Source: Candidatus Zambryskibacteria bacterium RIFOXYD1_FULL_40_13
Lineage (GTDB): Bacteria; Patescibacteriota; Minisyncoccia; Phycocordibacterales; DATDWN01
Direction of reading: 5' to 3'
NCBI GenBank assembly: GCA_001824295.1
Contig: MHWY01000008.1
Coordinates: forward strand, 52,261-116,260
DNA length: 64,000 nt
Of this stretch, positions 20,336 through 31,149 are shown piece after piece (within the stretch, counting starts at the first letter, position 1; the number at the start of each line of letters is the position of its first letter). The notes below the pieces were generated by a model that saw nothing but the letters and a program-made list of their open reading frames with translations, was not told where the DNA came from and did not search any database. Made by a program: the position numbers and the translations under genes.

Positions 20336-20701
20336 ATGCTCGGAAATCAAGAAAATAATCTTCCTCAATGCTTTCCTTACAGGAACAGTACACCTTTCAC
20401 ACCTGATTATAGGTGTTCAAGGTTTTACGAAGTCGTAATACGACTTCTCACCCTTTCGCAAACTCGTCGCGGGTTACCGCTCCTCAAACAGTGCTTCGGG
20501 CTGGCGCATTTTGTCGTTATTTTCTAATTTCCTGTGCAATGTCTCAGAAAACAAGTTTTTCGTTCTAACGAGAATGAAATTTTTAGATTGTTTACACAAC
20601 TATTTTAATCCACAGTCAATATGTTGCTTTAAAAAAGCGTTGGTATATAATGTTCTTATAGTAGATAGTAAAAAATTATTAGGTAATTATTAAAATCAAA
20701 T

Positions 20702-20974
20702 ATGAATAAAGCATCAATCGTAGAGGCAGTGCACGAAAAACTTGGTGGCACAAAGGTCCAAGCAGAAGAGGTTGTTGATTTAGTTATTGATTCTATCGTT
20801 GGTACACTAAAGAAAGGTGGCGAAGTTTCAATCGCTGGTCTTGGAATCTTTTCAACAAAGACTCGAGCAGCAAGACAAGCTCGAAATCCACGAACAGGAG
20901 AGTCTATTTCTGTTCCATCAATGAAAGTTCCAAAGTTTCGTGCAGCAAAGGCTCTTAAAGAAGCTGTAAAATAG
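20702..20974 (+). CDS. hup: DNA-binding protein HU
   Basis: 90 aa; GLGIFSTKTRAARQARNPRTGESISVP beta-arm motif. Confidence 0.9.
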   Translation: MNKASIVEAVHEKLGGTKVQAEEVVDLVIDSIVGTLKKGGEVSIAGLGIFSTKTRAARQARNPRTGESISVPSMKVPKFRAAKALKEAVK

Positions 20975-21013
20975 TCGCTTGATTTAAATTTTTAAAAAAT
21001 TTTATTTGCGCAA

Positions 21014-21042
21014 TCAAAAAACCACCTCTTGGTGGTTTTTTG
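21014..21042 (+). terminator. Rho-independent terminator of hup
   Basis: caaaaaaccacctcttggtggttttttga. Confidence 0.75.
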
Positions 21043-21063
21043 ATTATGTGTAGTTATATATAC

Positions 21064-21387
21064 TTAAACCAACCTAAACGATATTATTTTCACTAATGTA
21101 TCTAACGTAACCTTCTCACCATAATATTCTTTGTAGTGTTTGAGCATATCTTCTTTATCTATAAATTTTTCATGCCCAGTATAATCTTGCTCTGTAACGT
21201 CACCCAATTTCTTTTCTGTTACATTAAGAATTATAGCCTTTGCAAATTCTACTAATGTTTCCTTCACAATCAAAACGAGCTCATCACCTACCTGCAAATT
21301 TTTGTCGTCAAAAAGTCTCCAGGTTACTGTTTTTTCTCCTTTTAAAACAAGCTCGGCTAAATTACTTCTAAACTTAAGTGTTTTCAT
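21064..21387 (-). CDS. ASCH-domain (PUA-like) protein
   Basis: 107 aa; small beta-barrel-type sequence with KTVTWRL and the length typical of ASCH; assigned by resemblance only. Confidence 0.4.
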   Translation of the reverse strand: MKTLKFRSNLAELVLKGEKTVTWRLFDDKNLQVGDELVLIVKETLVEFAKAIILNVTEKKLGDVTEQDYTGHEKFIDKEDMLKHYKEYYGEKVTLDTLVKIISFRLV

Positions 21388-21388
21388 G

Positions 21389-21459
21389 TGCGGGATACCG
21401 GAGTCGAACCGGTCACCACAGTTTGGAAAACTGTTATTTTACCGATAAACTAATCCCGC
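21389..21459 (-). tRNA. tRNA-Gly (anticodon UCC)
   Basis: Reverse complement GCGGGATTAGTTTATCGGTAAAATAACAGTTTTCCAAACTGTGGTGACCGGTTCGACTCCGGTATCCCGCA folds as a cloverleaf; anticodon stem ACAGT/ACTGT, loop TTTCCAA; T-loop TTCGACT; CCA not encoded. Confidence 0.85.
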
Positions 21460-21515
21460 AATGAGATTATACTAGCAGAAAAAACACATGTAGGCAAAAA
21501 TGTTATAATTCACCC

Positions 21516-22628
21516 ATGCGCAACATAATAAGCATAATATTTATATTCTTTGCCTTGTTTATCTTCGGTATTAGCTATATACCCGAGACAATTGCACCAA
21601 CAAATACAAATGTAGAAGATACAGCAACAAGCACAGAGGAAATTCTCCAAAGTGAACCTACTGTAGATAAAATTGATACACCCACACCAATAAAAAACAC
21701 AACAAAAGAAACAAAACCAACCGTTTCTCAAAAATCAGAAGCGGTAATTCCAATAATCATCCCAGAAGTGATAGAACCGACCCCAGACTTTGAAAAAATA
21801 AACGTATTTGCTAGAGAAGCCACAGTAAATATTTTGTGTTCAACAAAAAATAGTGAATTCTCCCCTATTTCCGGCACGGGAATAGTTATAAGTGCCGACG
21901 GACTTATTATAACCAACGCCCATGTTGCCCAATATTTTTTACTCCGTGACCTATACCAGAAAGATTTTATTGAATGCATAGTACGCACAGGCAACCCAGC
22001 GTATCCGAGGTATAAAGTTGGGTTGGTTTATGTGTCGCCGACCTGGATAAAGTTGCACAAGTCGGAAATAACATCTCAAGACCCGCTTGGCACAGGTGAA
22101 TACGACTACGCACTCCTTCGTATTGTGGGCAGAATAGACGGCTCGCCCCTCTCACCGCTACCACACATACCAGTGAATACAAGCGAAGATATTACAACAA
22201 ACAAACCTGTAATATTAGTTTCGTATCCAGCTGGTTTCCTTGGTGGACTATCTATTCTTCAAGGATTAAACCAAGCAAGCGCGATTACAACCATTCAAGA
22301 TGTTTTCACATTCAAAGAAAATGTTGTTGATGTTATATCGGTTGGCGGAACGATTGTTTCCCAAAAGGGCTCGTCTGGGGGTGCTGTCGTGGATGGCAAA
22401 TCCTCTCTAATTGGTATTATTTCAACTAGCTCAAACGGAGATACGACAGGTAGTAGGGACCTGAACGCCATTACAATGGCTTATATAAATAGAAGTATAA
22501 AAATTGAATCTGGAATGAGTTTGGATGAACTCCTTTCTCAAAATATAGGTGCTTTTGCTACACTCTTTCAAGAAAACACCTCTCCCGAACTGACAAAAAT
22601 GCTTACTGATGAAATAACCAAAAAATAA
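21516..22628 (+). CDS. Trypsin-like serine protease (S1 family) with N-terminal TM anchor
   Basis: 370 aa; ITNAHVAQ (His) and GSSGGAVVD (Ser) catalytic motifs. Confidence 0.6.
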   Translation: MRNIISIIFIFFALFIFGISYIPETIAPTNTNVEDTATSTEEILQSEPTVDKIDTPTPIKNTTKETKPTVSQKSEAVIPIIIPEVIEPTPDFEKINVFAREATVNILCSTKNSEFSPISGTGIVISADGLIITNAHVAQYFLLRDLYQKDFIECIVRTGNPAYPRYKVGLVYVSPTWIKLHKSEITSQDPLGTGEYDYALLRIVGRIDGSPLSPLPHIPVNTSEDITTNKPVILVSYPAGFLGGLSILQGLNQASAITTIQDVFTFKENVVDVISVGGTIVSQKGSSGGAVVDGKSSLIGIISTSSNGDTTGSRDLNAITMAYINRSIKIESGMSLDELLSQNIGAFATLFQENTSPELTKMLTDEITKK

Positions 22629-22632
22629 TAGA

Positions 22633-22935
22633 TTATTTAAAACTATTGTTAGCGCTTGTCTGCACAATAGCTTGAAAATTATCTCCCTTTCCCGTCTTGT
22701 TCGGTTTTTTCTGACCACATTTTTCACATTGATGAATAATGATATATTGCTTGCCTTTTTTCTCTATCATAACTGGCTTCATCATTCCTCCACAATTCCC
22801 TGCCCTGTCTCCAGGAAACACATCAACATGTTTGGACCACAAACACTCTGGGCAATGGTTTGTATACCCGTCACCCTTAATAGAGCATCCGCATTTCTCA
22901 CAAACAAAATCCTCAGTTTTACGAATAAATGTCAT
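22633..22935 (-). CDS. RNHCP-domain zinc-ribbon protein
   Basis: 100 aa; TNHCPECLWSKH matches the eponymous RNHCP motif plus additional CxxC pairs. Confidence 0.45.
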   Translation of the reverse strand: MTFIRKTEDFVCEKCGCSIKGDGYTNHCPECLWSKHVDVFPGDRAGNCGGMMKPVMIEKKGKQYIIIHQCEKCGQKKPNKTGKGDNFQAIVQTSANNSFK

Positions 22936-22954
22936 GTAAATAGTTTAAAACTCT

Positions 22955-22987
22955 GTCGGGGTGCCGGGATTCGAACTCGAAGTCGCC
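22955..22987 (-). pseudogene. tRNA 3'-half fragment (T-arm + acceptor 3' strand), near-identical to the 3' half of tRNA-Pro
   Basis: Reverse complement GGCGACTTCGAGTTCGAATCCCGGCACCCCGAC versus the tRNA-Pro 3' half GGCGACTTCGAGTTCGAATCTCGACACCCCGA (3 mismatches); no matching 5' half is adjacent. Confidence 0.7.
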
Positions 22988-22998
22988 TAAATTTTTAT

Positions 22999-23035
22999 TA
23001 AAAAATTTCCACAGATGCCCAACGGGCATCTGGAG
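22999..23035 (-). terminator. Hairpin plus T-run downstream of tRNA-Pro (minus strand)
   Basis: Reverse complement CCAGATGCCCGTTGGGCATCTGG followed by AAATTTTTTAAT. Confidence 0.5.
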
Positions 23036-23053
23036 GTTGTTTTCAACACTTCG

Positions 23054-23126
23054 TCGGGGTGTCGAGATTCGAACTCGAAGTCGCCTGTTCCCAAAACAGG
23101 AATGTTAGCCGTTACACCACACCCCG
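23054..23126 (-). tRNA. tRNA-Pro (anticodon UGG)
   Basis: Reverse complement CGGGGTGTGGTGTAACGGCTAACATTCCTGTTTTGGGAACAGGCGACTTCGAGTTCGAATCTCGACACCCCGA; anticodon loop TTTGGGA (UGG, G37); perfect 7-bp acceptor stem. Confidence 0.85.
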
Positions 23127-23145
23127 ACGAATTTTTTAAAACACC

Positions 23146-23187
23146 CTCCCCAAAAAGGAATGCTAGCCGTTACACTACACTCCGATA
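23146..23187 (-). pseudogene. tRNA 5'-half fragment (acceptor 5' strand + D-arm + degenerate anticodon arm), Pro-like
   Basis: Reverse complement CGGAGTGTAGTGTAACGGCTAGCATTCCTTTTTGGGGAGGG versus the tRNA-Pro 5' half CGGGGTGTGGTGTAACGGCTAACATTCCTGTTTTGGG; no T-arm/3' end follows. Confidence 0.6.
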
Positions 23188-23243
23188 TTCAATAAAGTAA
23201 CCCAAACAGTCTAACATAAACAAACAAAATAACAAATTTATTT

Positions 23244-23870
23244 TTACCTTGGAGTTAGATAATACGTTGAAACTTCAATACAAATTACAACCAACAACCA
23301 CAAATATGAGACTGGGTTTGTTGCAATCAGCCACCACAAAACCGAGGTAATTATCATTGCCACAAGATGAATATGCTTAATACTTCTTTTCACTCCCAAA
23401 ACCACAGGAATCGTTCTAACCCCCTCTTTTCTGTCTTTTTCTGTGTCCCTTAAGTCCCCCACAAGATTTCTTATAGTAATCACTATTGCCACAAAATATG
23501 GAATAAGTGACGAATATCCAATTATTCCAGCAACTATAAAGAAATATTGTAAACCTCGGAACACAGGACTCAAAAAGGCTCGTTCCTTGGTTTTTCTTGT
23601 GTATAAATAGCTGAAGAATAGATAAAACAAACCTTCAATCTTCCCAAAATAAACCAGTCCAGTCAATGCTAAAACACAAACAACCACAACTGGTACCTTT
23701 GCCCTGTATGGATGAGCATGCCTATGCTCTAAATATGCCAGAAAGGCAAGATGCAAAACAACAGCCCCAAAAAGCTGGTGATATCCCGTGCCCACAACTA
23801 CGAGCAATAAAACCAAATCAGTCAATGAGTACAGCCTTATTTGCCCAAGATAATTTATAAATATCTTCAT
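23244..23870 (-). CDS. UbiA-family prenyltransferase
   Basis: Polytopic membrane protein; NLVGDLRDTEKDRKEG Asp-rich motif. Start set at the internal MKIFINY so it does not overlap yraN. Confidence 0.5.
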   Translation of the reverse strand: MKIFINYLGQIRLYSLTDLVLLLVVVGTGYHQLFGAVVLHLAFLAYLEHRHAHPYRAKVPVVVVCVLALTGLVYFGKIEGLFYLFFSYLYTRKTKERAFLSPVFRGLQYFFIVAGIIGYSSLIPYFVAIVITIRNLVGDLRDTEKDRKEGVRTIPVVLGVKRSIKHIHLVAMIITSVLWWLIATNPVSYLWLLVVICIEVSTYYLTPR

Positions 23871-23877
23871 GTATAGA

Positions 23878-24291
23878 TTAAAGCACAACATCCTCCAAAA
23901 CTGAAACCTTGAGCAACCTCCCTTCTCGGTCAAGATAGACAGTAACCACATCAAATTGCCAGTCTATATCATCCGAAATATCCTTTTCCAATAGGTACGA
24001 CTGAATCGCCCTTCCCAGCCTCTGAAGCTTCCACGGATGCATATTATCTTCTGGTCTATAAATATCACCGGAAACAGCGCCCGACGTTACATGTGTAACA
24101 CTTTTAACCTCAACAAAATGAAGCAACTTACCCTTTCTGACCACAATGTCTATTTCTCCCCATTTTCTTAGGTAATTTCTACAGACATTAGTGTAACCAT
24201 TTTTGGTTAGATAGTCACAGGCATAATCCTCCCCTATTTTGCCAATTTTTTGTTTTTCGGTTGGCTCTTTTCTCTCTCTTTTGCCAAACAT
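23878..24291 (-). CDS. yraN: YraN-family (UPF0102) endonuclease-like protein
   Basis: 137 aa; GEIDIVVRKGKLLHFVEVKS core typical of YraN. Confidence 0.6.
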   Translation of the reverse strand: MFGKRERKEPTEKQKIGKIGEDYACDYLTKNGYTNVCRNYLRKWGEIDIVVRKGKLLHFVEVKSVTHVTSGAVSGDIYRPEDNMHPWKLQRLGRAIQSYLLEKDISDDIDWQFDVVTVYLDREGRLLKVSVLEDVVL

Positions 24292-24605
24292 CTGTAAATT
24301 GTACGCTATTTCTGCATTTGTTTCATGTAAAACATATAACCCAGTTTCACGTGAAACGTTACCTGCTTTTTATTAGAAACAGACACTTTTTGGACATGTC
24401 GTATTGATTGTGTCTATATTATAAGCCGTTTTTCTAAATAGACTAGTAACGGCCAGTAAATCAGACACGAGTTAAAGACCTGTCTTTAATACACATGTCC
24501 CCAGACTTATCCACAGTTGTGACCTATTTTAACTGTTTATTGCTTGTATATATTATCCCTTTTGTTTTTTTGAGTTATAGTATATGATTATTTTGTGTTT
24601 AAAAT

Positions 24606-24676
24606 GCGGGTATGGTTTAGTGGTAGAACACGTCCTTGCCAAGGACGAGATTCGGGTTCGATTCCCGGTACCCGCA
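24606..24676 (+). tRNA. tRNA-Gly (anticodon GCC)
   Basis: GCGGGTATGGTTTAGTGGTAGAACACGTCCTTGCCAAGGACGAGATTCGGGTTCGATTCCCGGTACCCGCA; anticodon stem CGTCC/GGACG, loop TTGCCAA. Confidence 0.9.
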
Positions 24677-24849
24677 CAAAAAATACTTGTCTTTTTTGTG
24701 CGGGTAGTGCAAAGCATGCTTTGCACAGGGAATCGAAAAGCGGAGCGGGCACCTAGTCAGCAGACTGGGTCGCGAGCTGCGGACACGACTTTTCCGAGCG
24801 ACGGCGAGGAAAAAGTCGCGGAAGATTCCCGGTATTCTTAAGTATTCTG
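24677..24849. other. GC-rich structured spacer between convergent tRNA-Gly and tRNA-Arg (candidate small ncRNA / paired terminators)
   Basis: Perfect palindrome GTGCAAAGCATGCTTTGCAC; hairpin CGACTTTTCC...GGAAAAAGTCG; ~60% GC in a ~38% GC genome. Confidence 0.35.
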
Positions 24850-24921
24850 TGCACCCGGAGGGACTCGAACCCCCAAAAACAGCTTCGAAGGCTGGCATGA
24901 TATCCATTTCATCACGGGTGC
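24850..24921 (-). tRNA. tRNA-Arg (anticodon UCG)
   Basis: Reverse complement GCACCCGTGATGAAATGGATATCATGCCAGCCTTCGAAGCTGTTTTTGGGGGTTCGAGTCCCTCCGGGTGCA; anticodon loop CTTCGAA; T-loop TTCGAGT; 7-bp acceptor stem. Confidence 0.75.
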
Positions 24922-24995
24922 TTTATGTCGCTTAATTATATATTTTATTGGGACATGTTGCAATTGAATTCGAATATTGTTAAAATATTCGAAGT

Positions 24996-25454
24996 ATGAC
25001 AACTATAATATGTAGCAAATGTAAGATACTTAAGCCAATTGAGGATTTTAATTTTAAAATAAAATCAAAGGGAATTTATCAGCGTCAGTGTAAAATCTGT
25101 ACGAGAACAAACATTAGAAACCACTATATCAAGAATAAAAAATATTATCTAAATAAGGCACAGAAAAGAAACTTGGGGCTGAGAACAGAAATAAACAAGT
25201 ATATATTAGACTATTTTAAGAATCATCATTGTATAGACTGTGGTGAATCAGATCCAGTGGTGTTAGAATTTGATCATAGAGATAGGTCAGAAAAAGACGC
25301 GCATGTATCAGGTTTTCTTAGGGCAATGAGATTAGATATGGTCAAAAGTGAAATTGAAAAATGTGATGTGCGTTGTGCTAATTGTCACAGGAAGAGGACA
25401 GCAAAGCAATTTCATTGGTTTAAGTTGATAAATACGAAAAATGAAAACATTTAA
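24996..25454 (+). CDS. HNH-family endonuclease-like protein with N-terminal zinc finger
   Basis: 152 aa; CSKC...CKIC then HHCIDCGESDPVVLEFDHRD...CANCHRKRT (HNH betabeta-alpha-Me motif). Confidence 0.5.
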   Translation: MTTIICSKCKILKPIEDFNFKIKSKGIYQRQCKICTRTNIRNHYIKNKKYYLNKAQKRNLGLRTEINKYILDYFKNHHCIDCGESDPVVLEFDHRDRSEKDAHVSGFLRAMRLDMVKSEIEKCDVRCANCHRKRTAKQFHWFKLINTKNENI

Positions 25455-26910
25455 CATTCCTAAAGAGGTTACACGTGTAACAGGTGAGCTTGAGAAGGCT
25501 GGCTTTGAGGCTTTTCTTGTGGGTGGATGCGTAAGAGACCTTGTGTTGGGGAGAGTGCCAAAGGACTGGGATGTTACAACCAATGCGGTGCCAGAAGAGA
25601 TAATTGCCTTATTTAGCAAGACATTTTATGAAAACACCTTTGGAACAGTTGGGGTTGTAAACGAAGAGTGTGAAGACGAAAGTCTAAAGGTTGTCGAGGT
25701 TACTCCGTATAGAATAGAAGGGAACTACACCGACAATAGACATCCGGATAATGTTGTTTTTAGCCAAAAACTAGAGGATGACTTAAAAAGACGGGATTTT
25801 ACCATGAATTCCTTGGCCTACTCTGTTTCACGAGAAACAATCACCGACTTGTACGACGGGGAAAAAGATATAAAAGACAAGGTTATTCGAACAGTAGGGA
25901 ATCCAGTGGACCGTTTCACAGAGGATGGTTTGCGTATGTTGCGTGCAATAAGACTAAGTGCTGAACTCTCTTTTGAAATAGAGCCGGAAACAGAGAAAGC
26001 TATATTTGAAAACACGGATTTACTTAAAAACATATCCCTAGAGCGTATTAGAGATGAATTTACAAAGGTGATTATGTCAGACAGGCCCATGGATGGCTTG
26101 CTGGCTATGAAAAAACTTGGGGTAATGAAATATGTAGTACCAGAACTTGAAGGCACTTACGGAGTTGAGCAAAATAGGGCCCATTCCTACGATGTTTGGG
26201 AGCATCTAATACGGTCAGTCCAGCATTCTGCTGATAAAAAATACCCACTAGAAGTCCGTTTGAGCGCCTTGTTTCACGACATTTCCAAACCTGAGTCTCG
26301 TAGGTGGGGGAAAGAGCAAGACACATGGACATTTTATGGCCATGAAGTGCTTGGAGCAAGAACAACCAGGAAAATACTGACAAACCTTCGATATCCGACA
26401 AAAACAATAGAAAAAACAGTAACACTAGTTAGGTGGCACATGTTCTTCTCTGATACAGAGCAGATTACGCTCTCTGCGGTCCGTAGGATGATTGTAAATG
26501 TTGGACGGGAGAATATATGGGATTTGATGGATATGCGCATATGCGACCGTATAGGCACTGGTAGGCCCAAGGAAGACCCATACCGCCTCCGCAAATATCA
26601 CGCCATGATAGATGAAGCCCTGCGTGACCCTATCTCAGTTGCTATGCTTAAGATTGATGGCAAAAGATTGATGGATGTTACACATGTAACACCGGGACCG
26701 AAGATTGGTTTCACATTACACGCACTCCTTGAGGAGGTTTTAGACGACCCAACAAAAAATGCTCTGGAATATTTGGAAAACCGTGCAAAAGAGCTTATTT
26801 TACTTCCAGAAAACGAGCTACAAAGTCTTGGGGAGCAAGGAAAAATGACAAAAGAAGAGGCTGATGAGGAAGAAATCAAAAAAATACGTGGTAAACATTG
26901 GGTGAAATAG
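25441..26910 (+). CDS. cca: CCA-adding tRNA nucleotidyltransferase (Pol-beta-like head + HD domain)
   Basis: 489 aa; FLVGGCVRDLVLGRVPKDWDVTT, RDFTMNSLAY, HDISKPE; consistent with tRNA genes here lacking an encoded CCA. Confidence 0.85.
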   Translation: MKTFNIPKEVTRVTGELEKAGFEAFLVGGCVRDLVLGRVPKDWDVTTNAVPEEIIALFSKTFYENTFGTVGVVNEECEDESLKVVEVTPYRIEGNYTDNRHPDNVVFSQKLEDDLKRRDFTMNSLAYSVSRETITDLYDGEKDIKDKVIRTVGNPVDRFTEDGLRMLRAIRLSAELSFEIEPETEKAIFENTDLLKNISLERIRDEFTKVIMSDRPMDGLLAMKKLGVMKYVVPELEGTYGVEQNRAHSYDVWEHLIRSVQHSADKKYPLEVRLSALFHDISKPESRRWGKEQDTWTFYGHEVLGARTTRKILTNLRYPTKTIEKTVTLVRWHMFFSDTEQITLSAVRRMIVNVGRENIWDLMDMRICDRIGTGRPKEDPYRLRKYHAMIDEALRDPISVAMLKIDGKRLMDVTHVTPGPKIGFTLHALLEEVLDDPTKNALEYLENRAKELILLPENELQSLGEQGKMTKEEADEEEIKKIRGKHWVK

Positions 26911-30207: not shown

Positions 30208-31149
30208 TTAGCTCTTGTTATGAAACTTCTTGTGGATGTCACGGAGGTGTTTGTCAGTCACATGTGTATATATCTGTGTGGTAACAATACTTGAGTGTCC
30301 GAGCATGGCTTGGACGGAACGCAAGTCCGCCCCATTGCCGAGTAAATCTGTGGCAAAAAGGTGTCGTATTGTATGGGGTGTAACCTTTTTTGATATTCCA
30401 GCTTTGATTGCATGCTGTTTTACAATCCTCTCAATTGATCTGTTGTTCAGAAATCCATATTCTCTCGTACTGTTACTTTTAAAACTTTTTTCATCAACGG
30501 GGGTAAATAGGGCGTCACTAATATCCTTGCGTGCCTTCAAATATGCCCTGACACATTTCTTTGCCTCGTCAGAAAGGAAAACCACGCGAACCTTGCCCCC
30601 CTTACCACGAACAGACAGCTCGTCAGAATTAAGGTTTATGTCTCGTGTTAGAGACCGGAGCTCGGAAACACGAAGACCAGTAGAAAACAGCAGTTCGAGA
30701 ATGGCTTTGTCTCGCAAATCTTTCAGATTGCTCCCGTTGGGGGAATTGAGCATACGAGAGAGTTCCTCTGGAGTGATAAGGTCAAGAGACCTCTCGGAAA
30801 CCTTTGCTAGTTCTATCCTCTCGGCAGGCATGGTTTTAATTTCCTGCCTAGCTAGATATTTTAAAAAGGCCCGAAGAGCGATGAGATAGTAGTTCTGAGT
30901 TTTTCTGGACAATGTTTCATCGTTTCTCTTGCTGTGACCGGTCGGTTGCCTGTTGAGCCAGAGACGATACTGACGAACTACCTCATCCTTTATGTCGGCT
31001 GGGTTGTCAGTCTTGATGAAGTTCAAAAAACGAGTCAAATAGTGGTCATAATTCTCAACAGTTTTCACCGAACGGCCTCGTTCTATTTCTATGTATTCAA
31101 GAAACTGTTGTTTGAGTTGTTTGAGTGAAGACATGAAAATAGTTATCAA
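30208..31149 (-). CDS. Tyrosine site-specific recombinase, XerC/XerD family
   Basis: 313 aa; HTIRHLFATDLLGNGADLRSVQAMLGHSSIVTTQIYTHV C-terminal catalytic region (R..H..R..Y). Confidence 0.85.
   Translation of the reverse strand: MITIFMSSLKQLKQQFLEYIEIERGRSVKTVENYDHYLTRFLNFIKTDNPADIKDEVVRQYRLWLNRQPTGHSKRNDETLSRKTQNYYLIALRAFLKYLARQEIKTMPAERIELAKVSERSLDLITPEELSRMLNSPNGSNLKDLRDKAILELLFSTGLRVSELRSLTRDINLNSDELSVRGKGGKVRVVFLSDEAKKCVRAYLKARKDISDALFTPVDEKSFKSNSTREYGFLNNRSIERIVKQHAIKAGISKKVTPHTIRHLFATDLLGNGADLRSVQAMLGHSSIVTTQIYTHVTDKHLRDIHKKFHNKS

Follow-up and report, generated by a model that had tools for sequence, protein, structure and literature searches.

A stretch of 64,000 nucleotides (nt; hereafter the window) from a Candidatus Zambryskibacteria bacterium of groundwater, a member of the Patescibacteria or candidate phyla radiation (CPR; GCA_001824295.1, MHWY01000008.1), contains an intact gene for the transfer RNA (tRNA) tRNA-Pro(UGG), which is flanked on one side by the 5′ part and on the other side by the 3′ part of another tRNA-Pro gene. 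In the following, the 5′ stump is called W5, the intact gene WI and the 3′ stump W3, and the locus is read along the minus strand throughout. We see an even chance that a second tRNA-Pro unit became nested in the anticodon arm of a resident tRNA-Pro gene and so disrupted it, probably through template switching (copy-choice) or illegitimate recombination, and that the two stumps are dead relics of the resident gene. The evidence comes from the flanks of the stumps, from the alleles that they carry, from an inverted repeat around the intact gene, and from a second lineage in which part of the arrangement recurs.

Structure of the locus

The 308-nt spacer between the UbiA-family prenyltransferase gene and the gene for an RNHCP-domain protein holds, in this order, a promoter-like motif, W5, a leader, WI, a trailer, a hairpin with a T run, an A/T-rich stretch and W3. 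The arrangement is not an assembly artefact, since the spacer is base-for-base the same in 10 independent assemblies (NCBI, JGI, ENA, Logan). Between W5 and WI lie 21 nt of non-coding sequence, and between WI and W3 there are 65 nt, made up of the terminator hairpin and the A/T-rich stretch. The whole insert between the stumps measures ~160 nt, 73 nt of which are tRNA, and is without an open reading frame (ORF). Its junctions with the stumps read TTTTTGGGGAGGGTGTTTT and AAAAATTTAGGCGACTTCGAG, and the string for the empty site, behind the UbiA gene, is CCTGTTTTGGGAACAGGCGACTCCGGG.

WI folds into a full cloverleaf with all stems paired (ARAGORN) and has the bacterial Pro identity elements C1-G72, A73 and G37. 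W5 agrees with its positions 1–38 in 33 of 38 columns of a global alignment that includes one gap column (87–88% ungapped; blastn-short E = 1.5e-6), and W3 agrees with positions 41–73 in 31 of 33 (E = 1e-10), with weaker similarity (8/12) reaching 12 nt further into the trailer. The tRNA alignment scores of W5 and W3 are 54 and 60, the best chance alignment elsewhere in the window reaching 26. In an Rfam scan, neither stump scores as a tRNA by itself, even at E ≤ 10. The acceptor strands of the two stumps, CGGAGTG and CACCCCG, are complementary save for one A:C mismatch, and the T-stem of W3 is mismatched (TCGAG/CCCGG).

Much of this anatomy had been described in an earlier reading of the DNA that used the sequence only, without database searches. 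Its account of an intact tRNA-Pro(UGG) between two tRNA halves, of a hairpin terminator ahead of the 3′ fragment, and of acceptor strands that would pair but for one A:C mismatch is borne out by ARAGORN and Rfam, which call one intact gene, by the alignment of both fragments to it, and by a 9-bp hairpin with a T run. The range it gave, 22955–23187, was a few bases too wide, as the stumps end at 23184 and 22956, and its description of both fragments as near-identical to the intact gene suits W3 but not W5, to which the gene of a relative is closer (see below).

Flanks and alleles of the stumps

For comparison, seven syntenic lineages were recovered (designated here by L numbers), which share the order CCA-adding enzyme, tRNA-Arg, tRNA-Gly, UPF0102, tRNA-Pro(UGG), variable genes, RNHCP, protease. 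Genomes closer than ~60–70% protein identity were absent from the collections searched: a protein search with UbiA was empty between 64% and 100% identity, and a UbiA-based search of genome contigs for closer relatives gave no match. Several UbiA homologues were discarded as comparison loci, as they are not syntenic.

The sequence upstream of W5 aligns with the flank that precedes the intact tRNA-Pro(UGG) gene in L011 (p < 0.005) and in L026 (p ~ 0.02). In L011, L026, L023 and L028, this gene is preceded by a promoter layout that consists of TTGxxA, 16 nt and TGnTAnAnT, followed by 14–23 nt up to tRNA position 1. The corresponding motif in the window, TTGTTA, 16 nt and then TGTTAGACT, lies 23 nt upstream of W5; a generic sigma-70 scan missed it, since only 8 of 12 positions matched, plus the TG. 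W5 starts at the distance from the TGnTAnAnT motif that is conserved in the relatives, and WI starts 58 nt further on. Given the alignment of its flank with those of the relatives and the conserved promoter distance, W5 marks the start of the original gene. At the other end, the trailer of W3 begins with CA, as in all seven stump-less relatives, and that of WI begins with CG, as in L029. W5 (positions 1–38) and W3 (41–73) together make up one gene, with a gap or overlap of at most 3 nt. The sequence-only reading had considered, next to an integrase-based origin, that a second tRNA-Pro gene was disrupted by insertion of the functional copy; this second idea fits better, in view of the ancestral start of W5, the ancestral-type trailer of W3, the complementary extents of the stumps and the flanks that are WI's own.

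In an alignment of all copies, the stumps differ from WI at seven positions. Five of these (A4, A9, G22, C62, G65) show states that occur in working tRNA-Pro(UGG) genes of the relatives, and the remaining two, the loss of G30 and an A38-to-G change, resemble decay. W5 is closer to the tRNA of L028 (35/38) than to WI (33/38). Because they carry the relatives' states, the stumps look like a different allele and not like a decayed recent copy of WI; judged by these positions, a descent of WI other than that of the resident allele left as stumps would be a better fit than a recent local copy. Two intact tandem tRNA-Pro genes in relatives, which the sequence-only reading had taken as a possible sign of simple decay, are literally present in L011 (UGG, then CGG), but the stumps belong to the UGG type: a derivation of W3 from a tRNA-Pro(CGG) by decay was ruled out, as W3 matches the CGG gene of L011 at 23 of 33 positions versus 31 of 33 for WI.

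An inverted repeat formed by leader and trailer

The intact gene is enclosed by an inverted repeat of 31 nt (23149–23119 and 23062–23032), the arms of which are 87% complementary. Continuing the acceptor stem in register, leader and trailer of WI form 19 Watson-Crick pairs over 23 positions (P = 1.5e-8), and the predicted helix that closes leader and trailer has a z of −4.4. Nothing similar was seen in the other tRNAs of the window and of L011, so that the pairing is ruled out as a general pre-tRNA feature of the organism. In L029, 12 of 20 positions pair (P = 0.002), and at the stump-less tRNA-Pro loci (n = 7) the count is only 3–9 of 20. Since the pairing is found in the window and in L029, and not at the seven stump-less loci, the 5′ stump and the inverted-trailer leader are linked.

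The 3′ part of the trailer is similar to the 5′ arm of the terminator that follows tRNA-Pro in the relatives (AAACCTCC). A search of the 64 kb for further copies of leader, trailer or hairpin returned only short A/T-rich chance matches. A likeness of the T-tract behind the hairpin to the leader and to the L011 terminator was marginal (p ~ 0.04) and was given no weight.

Recurrence in L029 and rearrangements in other relatives

A comparable arrangement is found in L029 (GCA_021733565.1, JAKFZD010010350.1), where positions 2240–2420 contain a promoter, a 5′ stump, a leader of ~18–20 nt, an intact tRNA-Pro(UGG) and a trailer. The stump (2278–2308) is 31 nt long and 96.8% identical to the adjoining tRNA (E = 5e-12), and it is the stump that the conserved promoter layout precedes in this lineage. 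L029 is diverged from the window, with amino-acid identities of 56% in UPF0102 and 71% in RNHCP. The two loci agree in their junction (…TTTTGGGG|A…), in how far the stump extends and in the leader–trailer pairing, and the A38-to-G change is common to W5 and the L029 stump.

The other lineages display a range of forms at this locus. L026 has a single clean tRNA-Pro(UGG) gene. L011 (also sampled as L021 and L022) carries the UGG gene, two extra direct copies of its last 16–18 nt (L011:4718-4936; one with a trailer of ~30 nt), a GC-rich insert of ~97 nt between the gene and the first of these copies, and thereafter an intact tRNA-Pro(CGG). In L023 and L024 the encoded RNHCP and UPF0102 proteins are the same, and L024 differs from L023 (L023:2183-2234) by a 136-nt insertion at the 3′ end of tRNA-Pro, flanked by a 9-bp direct repeat, ACCCCGACA, which comes from the tRNA 3′ end. 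The terminator palindrome of L023 has arms of 24 nt and includes the 3′ end of the tRNA, and at L024:2041-2104 there is a perfect palindrome of 64 bp (32+32, spacer-free) that includes the last 12 nt of tRNA-Pro. In L025 (2297-2370) and L028 (2865-2938), the unit of promoter, tRNA-Pro(UGG) and terminator is inverted relative to UPF0102 and RNHCP. Furthermore, the genes between tRNA-Pro and RNHCP vary among the relatives. In metagenome and genome contigs, a pattern search for an intact gene of "ancestor-like" sequence matched only the L011 lineage.

The stumps, 3′-end repeats, perfect palindromes and unit inversions support the view of the tRNA-Pro(UGG) unit, palindromic terminator included, as a hot spot where rearrangement recurs. 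That tRNA-Pro is a place of past recombination had been proposed from the window, and the relatives agree with it through their variable genes, 3′-end repeats, the 136-nt indel with its 9-bp repeat and the inversions.

Features of the locus and its neighbourhood

The features are collected in Table 1. The scan for hairpins reported the terminator stem on the plus strand, as the stem is palindromic.

Table 1. Elements of the tRNA-Pro locus and the two adjoining genes, with positions in the window
Feature	Position	Strand	Basis and remarks
Likely promoter of the tRNA unit	23208..23235	-	-35 TTGTTA (23235..23230), 16-nt spacer, TGn + -10 TAGACT (23213..23208); read from sequence
W5, tRNA-Pro positions 1-38, CGGAGTGTAGTGTAACGGCTAGCATTCCTTTTTGGGG; no gene by itself	23148..23184	-	Alignments, blastn-short
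Leader between W5 and WI (21 nt), left arm of the inverted repeat; reads GGAGGGTGTTTTAAAAAATTCGT including the last two stump bases	23127..23147	-	
WI, intact tRNA-Pro(UGG), C1-G72, A73, CCA not encoded	23054..23126	-	ARAGORN; Rfam RF00005, 59.8 bits (gathering score 29)
Trailer R1 (22 nt), CGAAGTGTTGAAAACAACCTCC, right arm of the inverted repeat	23032..23053	-	Repeat search
Terminator-like 9-bp hairpin, CAGATGCCC-GTT-GGGCATCTG (23032..23012), GTGGAAA, T run (23005..23000)	23000..23032	-	Scan, fold
W3, tRNA-Pro positions 41-73, AGGCGACTTCGAGTTCGAATCCCGGCACCCCGA	22956..22988	-	Alignments
W3 trailer, CAGAGTTTTAAA	22944..22955	-	8/12 match to WI trailer; starts with CA
UbiA-family prenyltransferase gene, upstream neighbour	23244..23870	-	Pfam PF01040; gene call in L001
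RNHCP-domain zinc-ribbon gene, downstream neighbour, start 20 nt past W3	22633..22935	-	Pfam PF12647, E = 2e-28

The neighbouring genes have housekeeping functions (trigger factor, ClpP, RNase Y, HU, CCA-adding enzyme, exonuclease III, ribosomal protein S15). Three other tRNAs lie nearby, likewise without an encoded CCA, and the gene of the CCA-adding enzyme (25441..26910) is 2.3 kb from tRNA-Pro. No integrase, phage or cargo genes are found between or adjoining W5, WI and W3. The tyrosine recombinase that the sequence-only reading had placed within 8 kb does exist (30208..31149), but it is a full-length enzyme of the XerC/D type, matching the XerD and XerC models from end to end (245 and 242 bits), and lies 7 kb off, past the tRNA-Gly, tRNA-Arg, CCA-adding enzyme and exonuclease genes. 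The HNH endonuclease named alongside it was not recovered, as no HNH domain was found in any of the ORFs tested within ~8 kb; the gene next door encodes the RNHCP zinc ribbon.

Some further observations were made in the vicinity. Within the UbiA coding sequence, ATTCCTGTGGTTTTGGGA (23394–23411, minus strand) resembles the tRNA-Pro anticodon arm ATTCCTGTTTTGGGA; this 17-nt string is also present at L011:4461-4478 and therefore is probably a coincidence of the coding sequence. Between the HU gene and a gene for an ASCH-domain protein, a long A/T-flanked hairpin, AAAACCACC…GGTGGTTTT (20975–21048), gives only weak, sub-threshold Rfam matches to unrelated small RNA families and is probably a bidirectional terminator.

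Between tRNA-Gly(GCC) and tRNA-Arg(UCG), the plus strand of the window (24725–24825) carries a GC-rich element of ~85–100 nt with two hairpins. It follows a tRNA gene on the same strand at different loci, being present also at L011:4774-4856 and L023/L024:2269-2287. The copies of the window and L011 are 83% identical, with paired changes in the second hairpin and a fold z of −4.2. The element is without an Rfam match; it could be a small RNA or a small mobile element.

The tRNA-Gly(GCC) gene nearby is itself a site of change. In L023 and L024, a 150-amino-acid ORF and a tRNA-Arg(UCG), which lie beside this gene on one strand, are swapped for another allele of tRNA-Arg(UCG) in the opposite orientation (L023:1137-1209 versus L024:907-979). 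In L002 (GCA_003520815.1), which belongs to the same species as the window, different DNA is joined inside tRNA-Gly(GCC) at 900-1330 (window ~24606–25040), such that a hybrid tRNA results. The foreign DNA carries a Transposase_mut (IS256-type) gene and an extra tRNA-Gly(GCC) and tRNA-Arg(UCG), which encode CCA, unlike the host tRNAs. It looks like an island or foreign DNA integrated at a tRNA, though it may be an assembly chimera.

Origin of the arrangement

Under the explanation that we favour, the ancestor would have had a single tRNA-Pro(UGG) gene directly behind the promoter that follows the UbiA gene. This gene would have been split between about position 38 and position 41–43 by a tRNA-Pro(UGG) unit of ~160 bp that comprised a leader (an inverted copy of its own trailer), a complete tRNA, a trailer and a hairpin terminator, and the halves of the old gene would persist, decaying, as W5 and W3. 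The event would most likely have been a copy-choice (template switch) during replication or repair, or an illegitimate insertion, at the palindrome-rich unit of tRNA and terminator. The palindrome of the acceptor stem could have served as the microhomology for the strand switch and as the point at which synthesis returned to the direct strand, and strand switching of this kind would account for a leader that is the trailer's reverse complement, aligned exactly with the acceptor stem. At present, WI would be transcribed from the old promoter, with ~81 nt (W5 plus spacer) between the promoter's start site and the mature 5′ end. RNase P would cut this 5′ end, a 3′ nuclease would mature the 3′ end, the CCA-adding enzyme would add CCA, and transcription would end at the hairpin, before W3.

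Several points weigh against this explanation. L029 has the 5′ stump without a 3′ stump; either its 3′ stump was lost, or the two stumps of the window go back to separate events, in which case their complementary extent would be a coincidence. W3, furthermore, is a mosaic, with the 5′ strand of its T-stem (TCGAG) like WI and the 3′ strand (CCCGG) like L025 and L028, such that an extra gene conversion from WI, or a crossover in the T-loop as made by an integrase, is needed. The halves are imperfectly matched, since A4 of W5 and C69 of W3 are unpaired. The microhomology at the proposed switch points is a mere 2–3 nt. Finally, a donor copy of the inserted unit was not found in the 64 kb of the genome that were searched, and scans of public DNA matched only the L011 lineage.

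Other histories would likewise leave the stumps as remains. A simple tandem duplication does not hold up, for the spacers lack homology: the leader bears no relation to the sequence before W5 (p ~ 0.8), and the flank of W3 matches the WI trailer for 12 nt only (8/12). A decayed tandem array, which we hold to be doubtful but well worth considering, would have arisen by duplication of the tRNA with its palindromic terminator to two or three units and subsequent independent deletions, by which the first unit lost positions 38–73 plus the 5′ arm of its terminator and the last unit lost positions 1–40, the leader being what is left of the first terminator's 3′ arm. The relatives lend it plausibility, for their terminator is a long palindrome that reaches into the tRNA 3′ end (with arms of 24 nt in L023 and 32 nt in L024), so that the last bases of its 3′ arm imitate the start of the tRNA and could allow unequal exchange to begin there; this conserved terminator has arms that are similar to the leader GGAGGGTGTTTT and to the trailer AAAACAACCTCC, and the 5′ stump alone in L029 and the two tandem 3′-end repeats in L011 are in keeping with such a history. 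However, it demands at least three events and two deletion end-points that by chance lie no more than 3 nt apart, the differences between stumps and WI look allelic and are unlike the decay of a recent copy, and the downstream flank of W3 is not homologous to the WI trailer past 12 nt. The scar of a site-specific integration is in our opinion unlikely. It would be what remains of an element of the type known from tRNA-dependent lysogeny, eroded to its essential tRNA, or of two partial duplications of the att type whose elements were deleted. The break in the anticodon arm, a common crossover site of tRNA-targeting integrases, would suit this origin, phages that disrupt a host tRNA while bringing a replacement of the same isotype are documented (PMC10865867), and a T-loop crossover between two alleles would yield the mosaic T-arm of W3. 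Insertions in related DNA speak in its favour as well: the foreign DNA inside tRNA-Gly(GCC) of the same species (L002), 1.5 kb away, the 136-nt insert of L024 with its 9-bp direct repeat, and the variable gene content between tRNA-Pro and RNHCP. This origin would account for W3 and for the hot-spot character of the locus. Against this, neither the interval between the fragments nor the DNA directly next to them holds integrase, phage or cargo genes, and the nearby recombinase is of the XerC/D type. The two junctions share at most AGG, with no common core of more than 3 nt, the inverted-trailer leader of two lineages is left unexplained, and a 5′ fragment between promoter and intact gene is not a usual product of tRNA-targeting integrases, which normally duplicate 3′ portions only, the promoter staying with the original 5′ part. 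No attP-like partner of the fragments was found in viral contigs, phages or plasmids, metagenome contigs not having been searched for the junctions; the sole match in viral contigs, L027, is an unrelated tRNA-Pro(CGG), and BLAST against phages and plasmids gave generic tRNA-Pro similarity only. The integrase att remnants proposed by the sequence-only reading are thus not upheld, given the missing integrase, cargo and attP partner, the spacings of 21 and 65 nt and the atypical 5′ fragment.

It is also conceivable, but highly improbable, that the arrangement is functional. The 5′ stump and the complementary leader would then act as a scaffold or decoy in the pre-tRNA, or W5 and W3 would constitute a split or nested tRNA, in which the inner tRNA is an "intron" released by RNase P and RNase Z and the ungapped loop of W5, UUGGGGA, provides a Pro-GGG anticodon. 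The arrangement does recur in two diverged lineages with streamlined genomes, the 5′ stumps of both carry the A38-to-G change, and the closing helix is predicted with the z given above. Yet a terminator separates W3 from the inner tRNA, the joined halves have no proper 3′ strand of the anticodon stem (none matches CCTTT or CCT-T) and contain A4:C69 and A52:C62 mismatches, the arrangement is missing in five of the seven related lineages, and the differences between the L029 stump and the tRNA beside it are at positions that suggest random decay. Moreover, to our knowledge bacteria have no pathway for the ligation of tRNA halves. The intron and low-threshold modes of ARAGORN returned no outer or permuted tRNA at the locus, only WI and a spurious antisense call. 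When the halves were joined in silico, ARAGORN accepted 87 of 116 joins, and this non-discriminating test was dropped as evidence of function. A group I intron was rejected, since the exons cannot be rejoined and an Rfam cmscan of 20500–25500 at E ≤ 10 gave no intron, tmRNA or other family in the insert.

A more far-reaching reading strikes us as quite unlikely. It holds that the unit of leader, tRNA and trailer is a small mobile, "self-replacing" selfish tRNA-Pro cassette with an inverted repeat of 20–30 nt that lands repeatedly in the resident anticodon arm of Zambryskibacteria-like bacteria, where it would destroy the resident gene and thereby become indispensable itself, or else that the leader is a conserved, functional pre-tRNA leader.

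Implications

If nested insertion took place, the locus consists of one active tRNA gene and two fossil stumps, and no new function is involved. It would then follow that a nested copy can take the place of a single-copy, presumably essential tRNA gene at its own locus in streamlined CPR bacteria, and that tRNA fragments beside tRNA genes are not always the footprints of integrases. For the annotation of genomes, the case calls for caution, as 5′ stumps may lie inside the leader of a tRNA. Should the cassette or the leader prove to be mobile or functional, it would represent a tRNA element of a new, selfish or regulatory kind.

Comparison with known systems

Displaced tRNA fragments at genomic islands and prophages were reportedly described by Williams in 2002, with the anticodon arm as a common crossover site of integrases. 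The latter is also stated for tRNA-targeting integrases in a more recent study (PMC10865867), and that tRNA genes may have tRNA fragments next to them is well established (PMC9897764, PMC4383910). The fragments that mark att sites at the ends of islands and prophages (Islander, PMC4383910; van der Gulik et al. 2023, PMC9897764) are similar to the present case in that a partial direct repeat stands beside an intact tRNA, and W3, which extends from the anticodon arm to just past the tRNA end, is like the typical common core of 30–45 bp. In contrast to such sites, there is no island or integrase between the repeats here, with 65 nt between WI and W3 and 21 nt between W5 and WI, a 5′ fragment is present, and WI is surrounded by an inverted repeat.

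A closer structural parallel is provided by the tRNA-dependent lysogeny of actinobacteriophages (Guerrero-Bustamante & Hatfull 2024, PMC10865867), where an eroded prophage would leave an intact tRNA between a 5′ half and a 3′ half. As in this mode of integration, the host tRNA stays divided instead of being restored, and the insert contains a tRNA-Pro(UGG) of the same isotype. However, the link is one of structure only, since an integrase, prophage genes and a common core are missing here, and the host is a CPR bacterium.

Split and permuted tRNA genes are known from Archaea and red algae (Nanoarchaeum equitans, Cyanidioschyzon merolae). They are alike in having separate 5′ and 3′ halves with complementary acceptor strands. 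Here, in contrast, the setting is bacterial (a C1-G72 tRNA-Pro, RNase Y, HU, trigger factor) with no splicing machinery known, and the halves stand in the same orientation around a full gene, have mismatched stems and are separated by a terminator. The group I introns in anticodon loops of Patescibacteria tRNAs (Nakagawa et al. 2026, PMC13011429) share with our locus the phylum and an insertion in the anticodon region that standard finders miss. Unlike these introns, the 160-nt insert has no group I core and is mostly tRNA and terminator, and its halves cannot be rejoined.

Quasipalindrome or template-switch mutagenesis (said to go back to Ripley 1982) and microhomology-mediated templated insertions (reportedly treated by Hastings et al. 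2009) offer a further comparison. The likeness is drawn from the end product alone, and the microhomologies are short. It lies in an inverted copy of nearby sequence that is joined at a palindrome, the acceptor stem, beside a direct partial duplication, and the long perfect palindromes at tRNA-Pro of the relatives are typical products of such events. What is unusual here is the nesting of an intact gene between a 5′ stump and a 3′ stump, with a stump within the leader, a leader that is the inverted trailer, and a recurrence in a second lineage.

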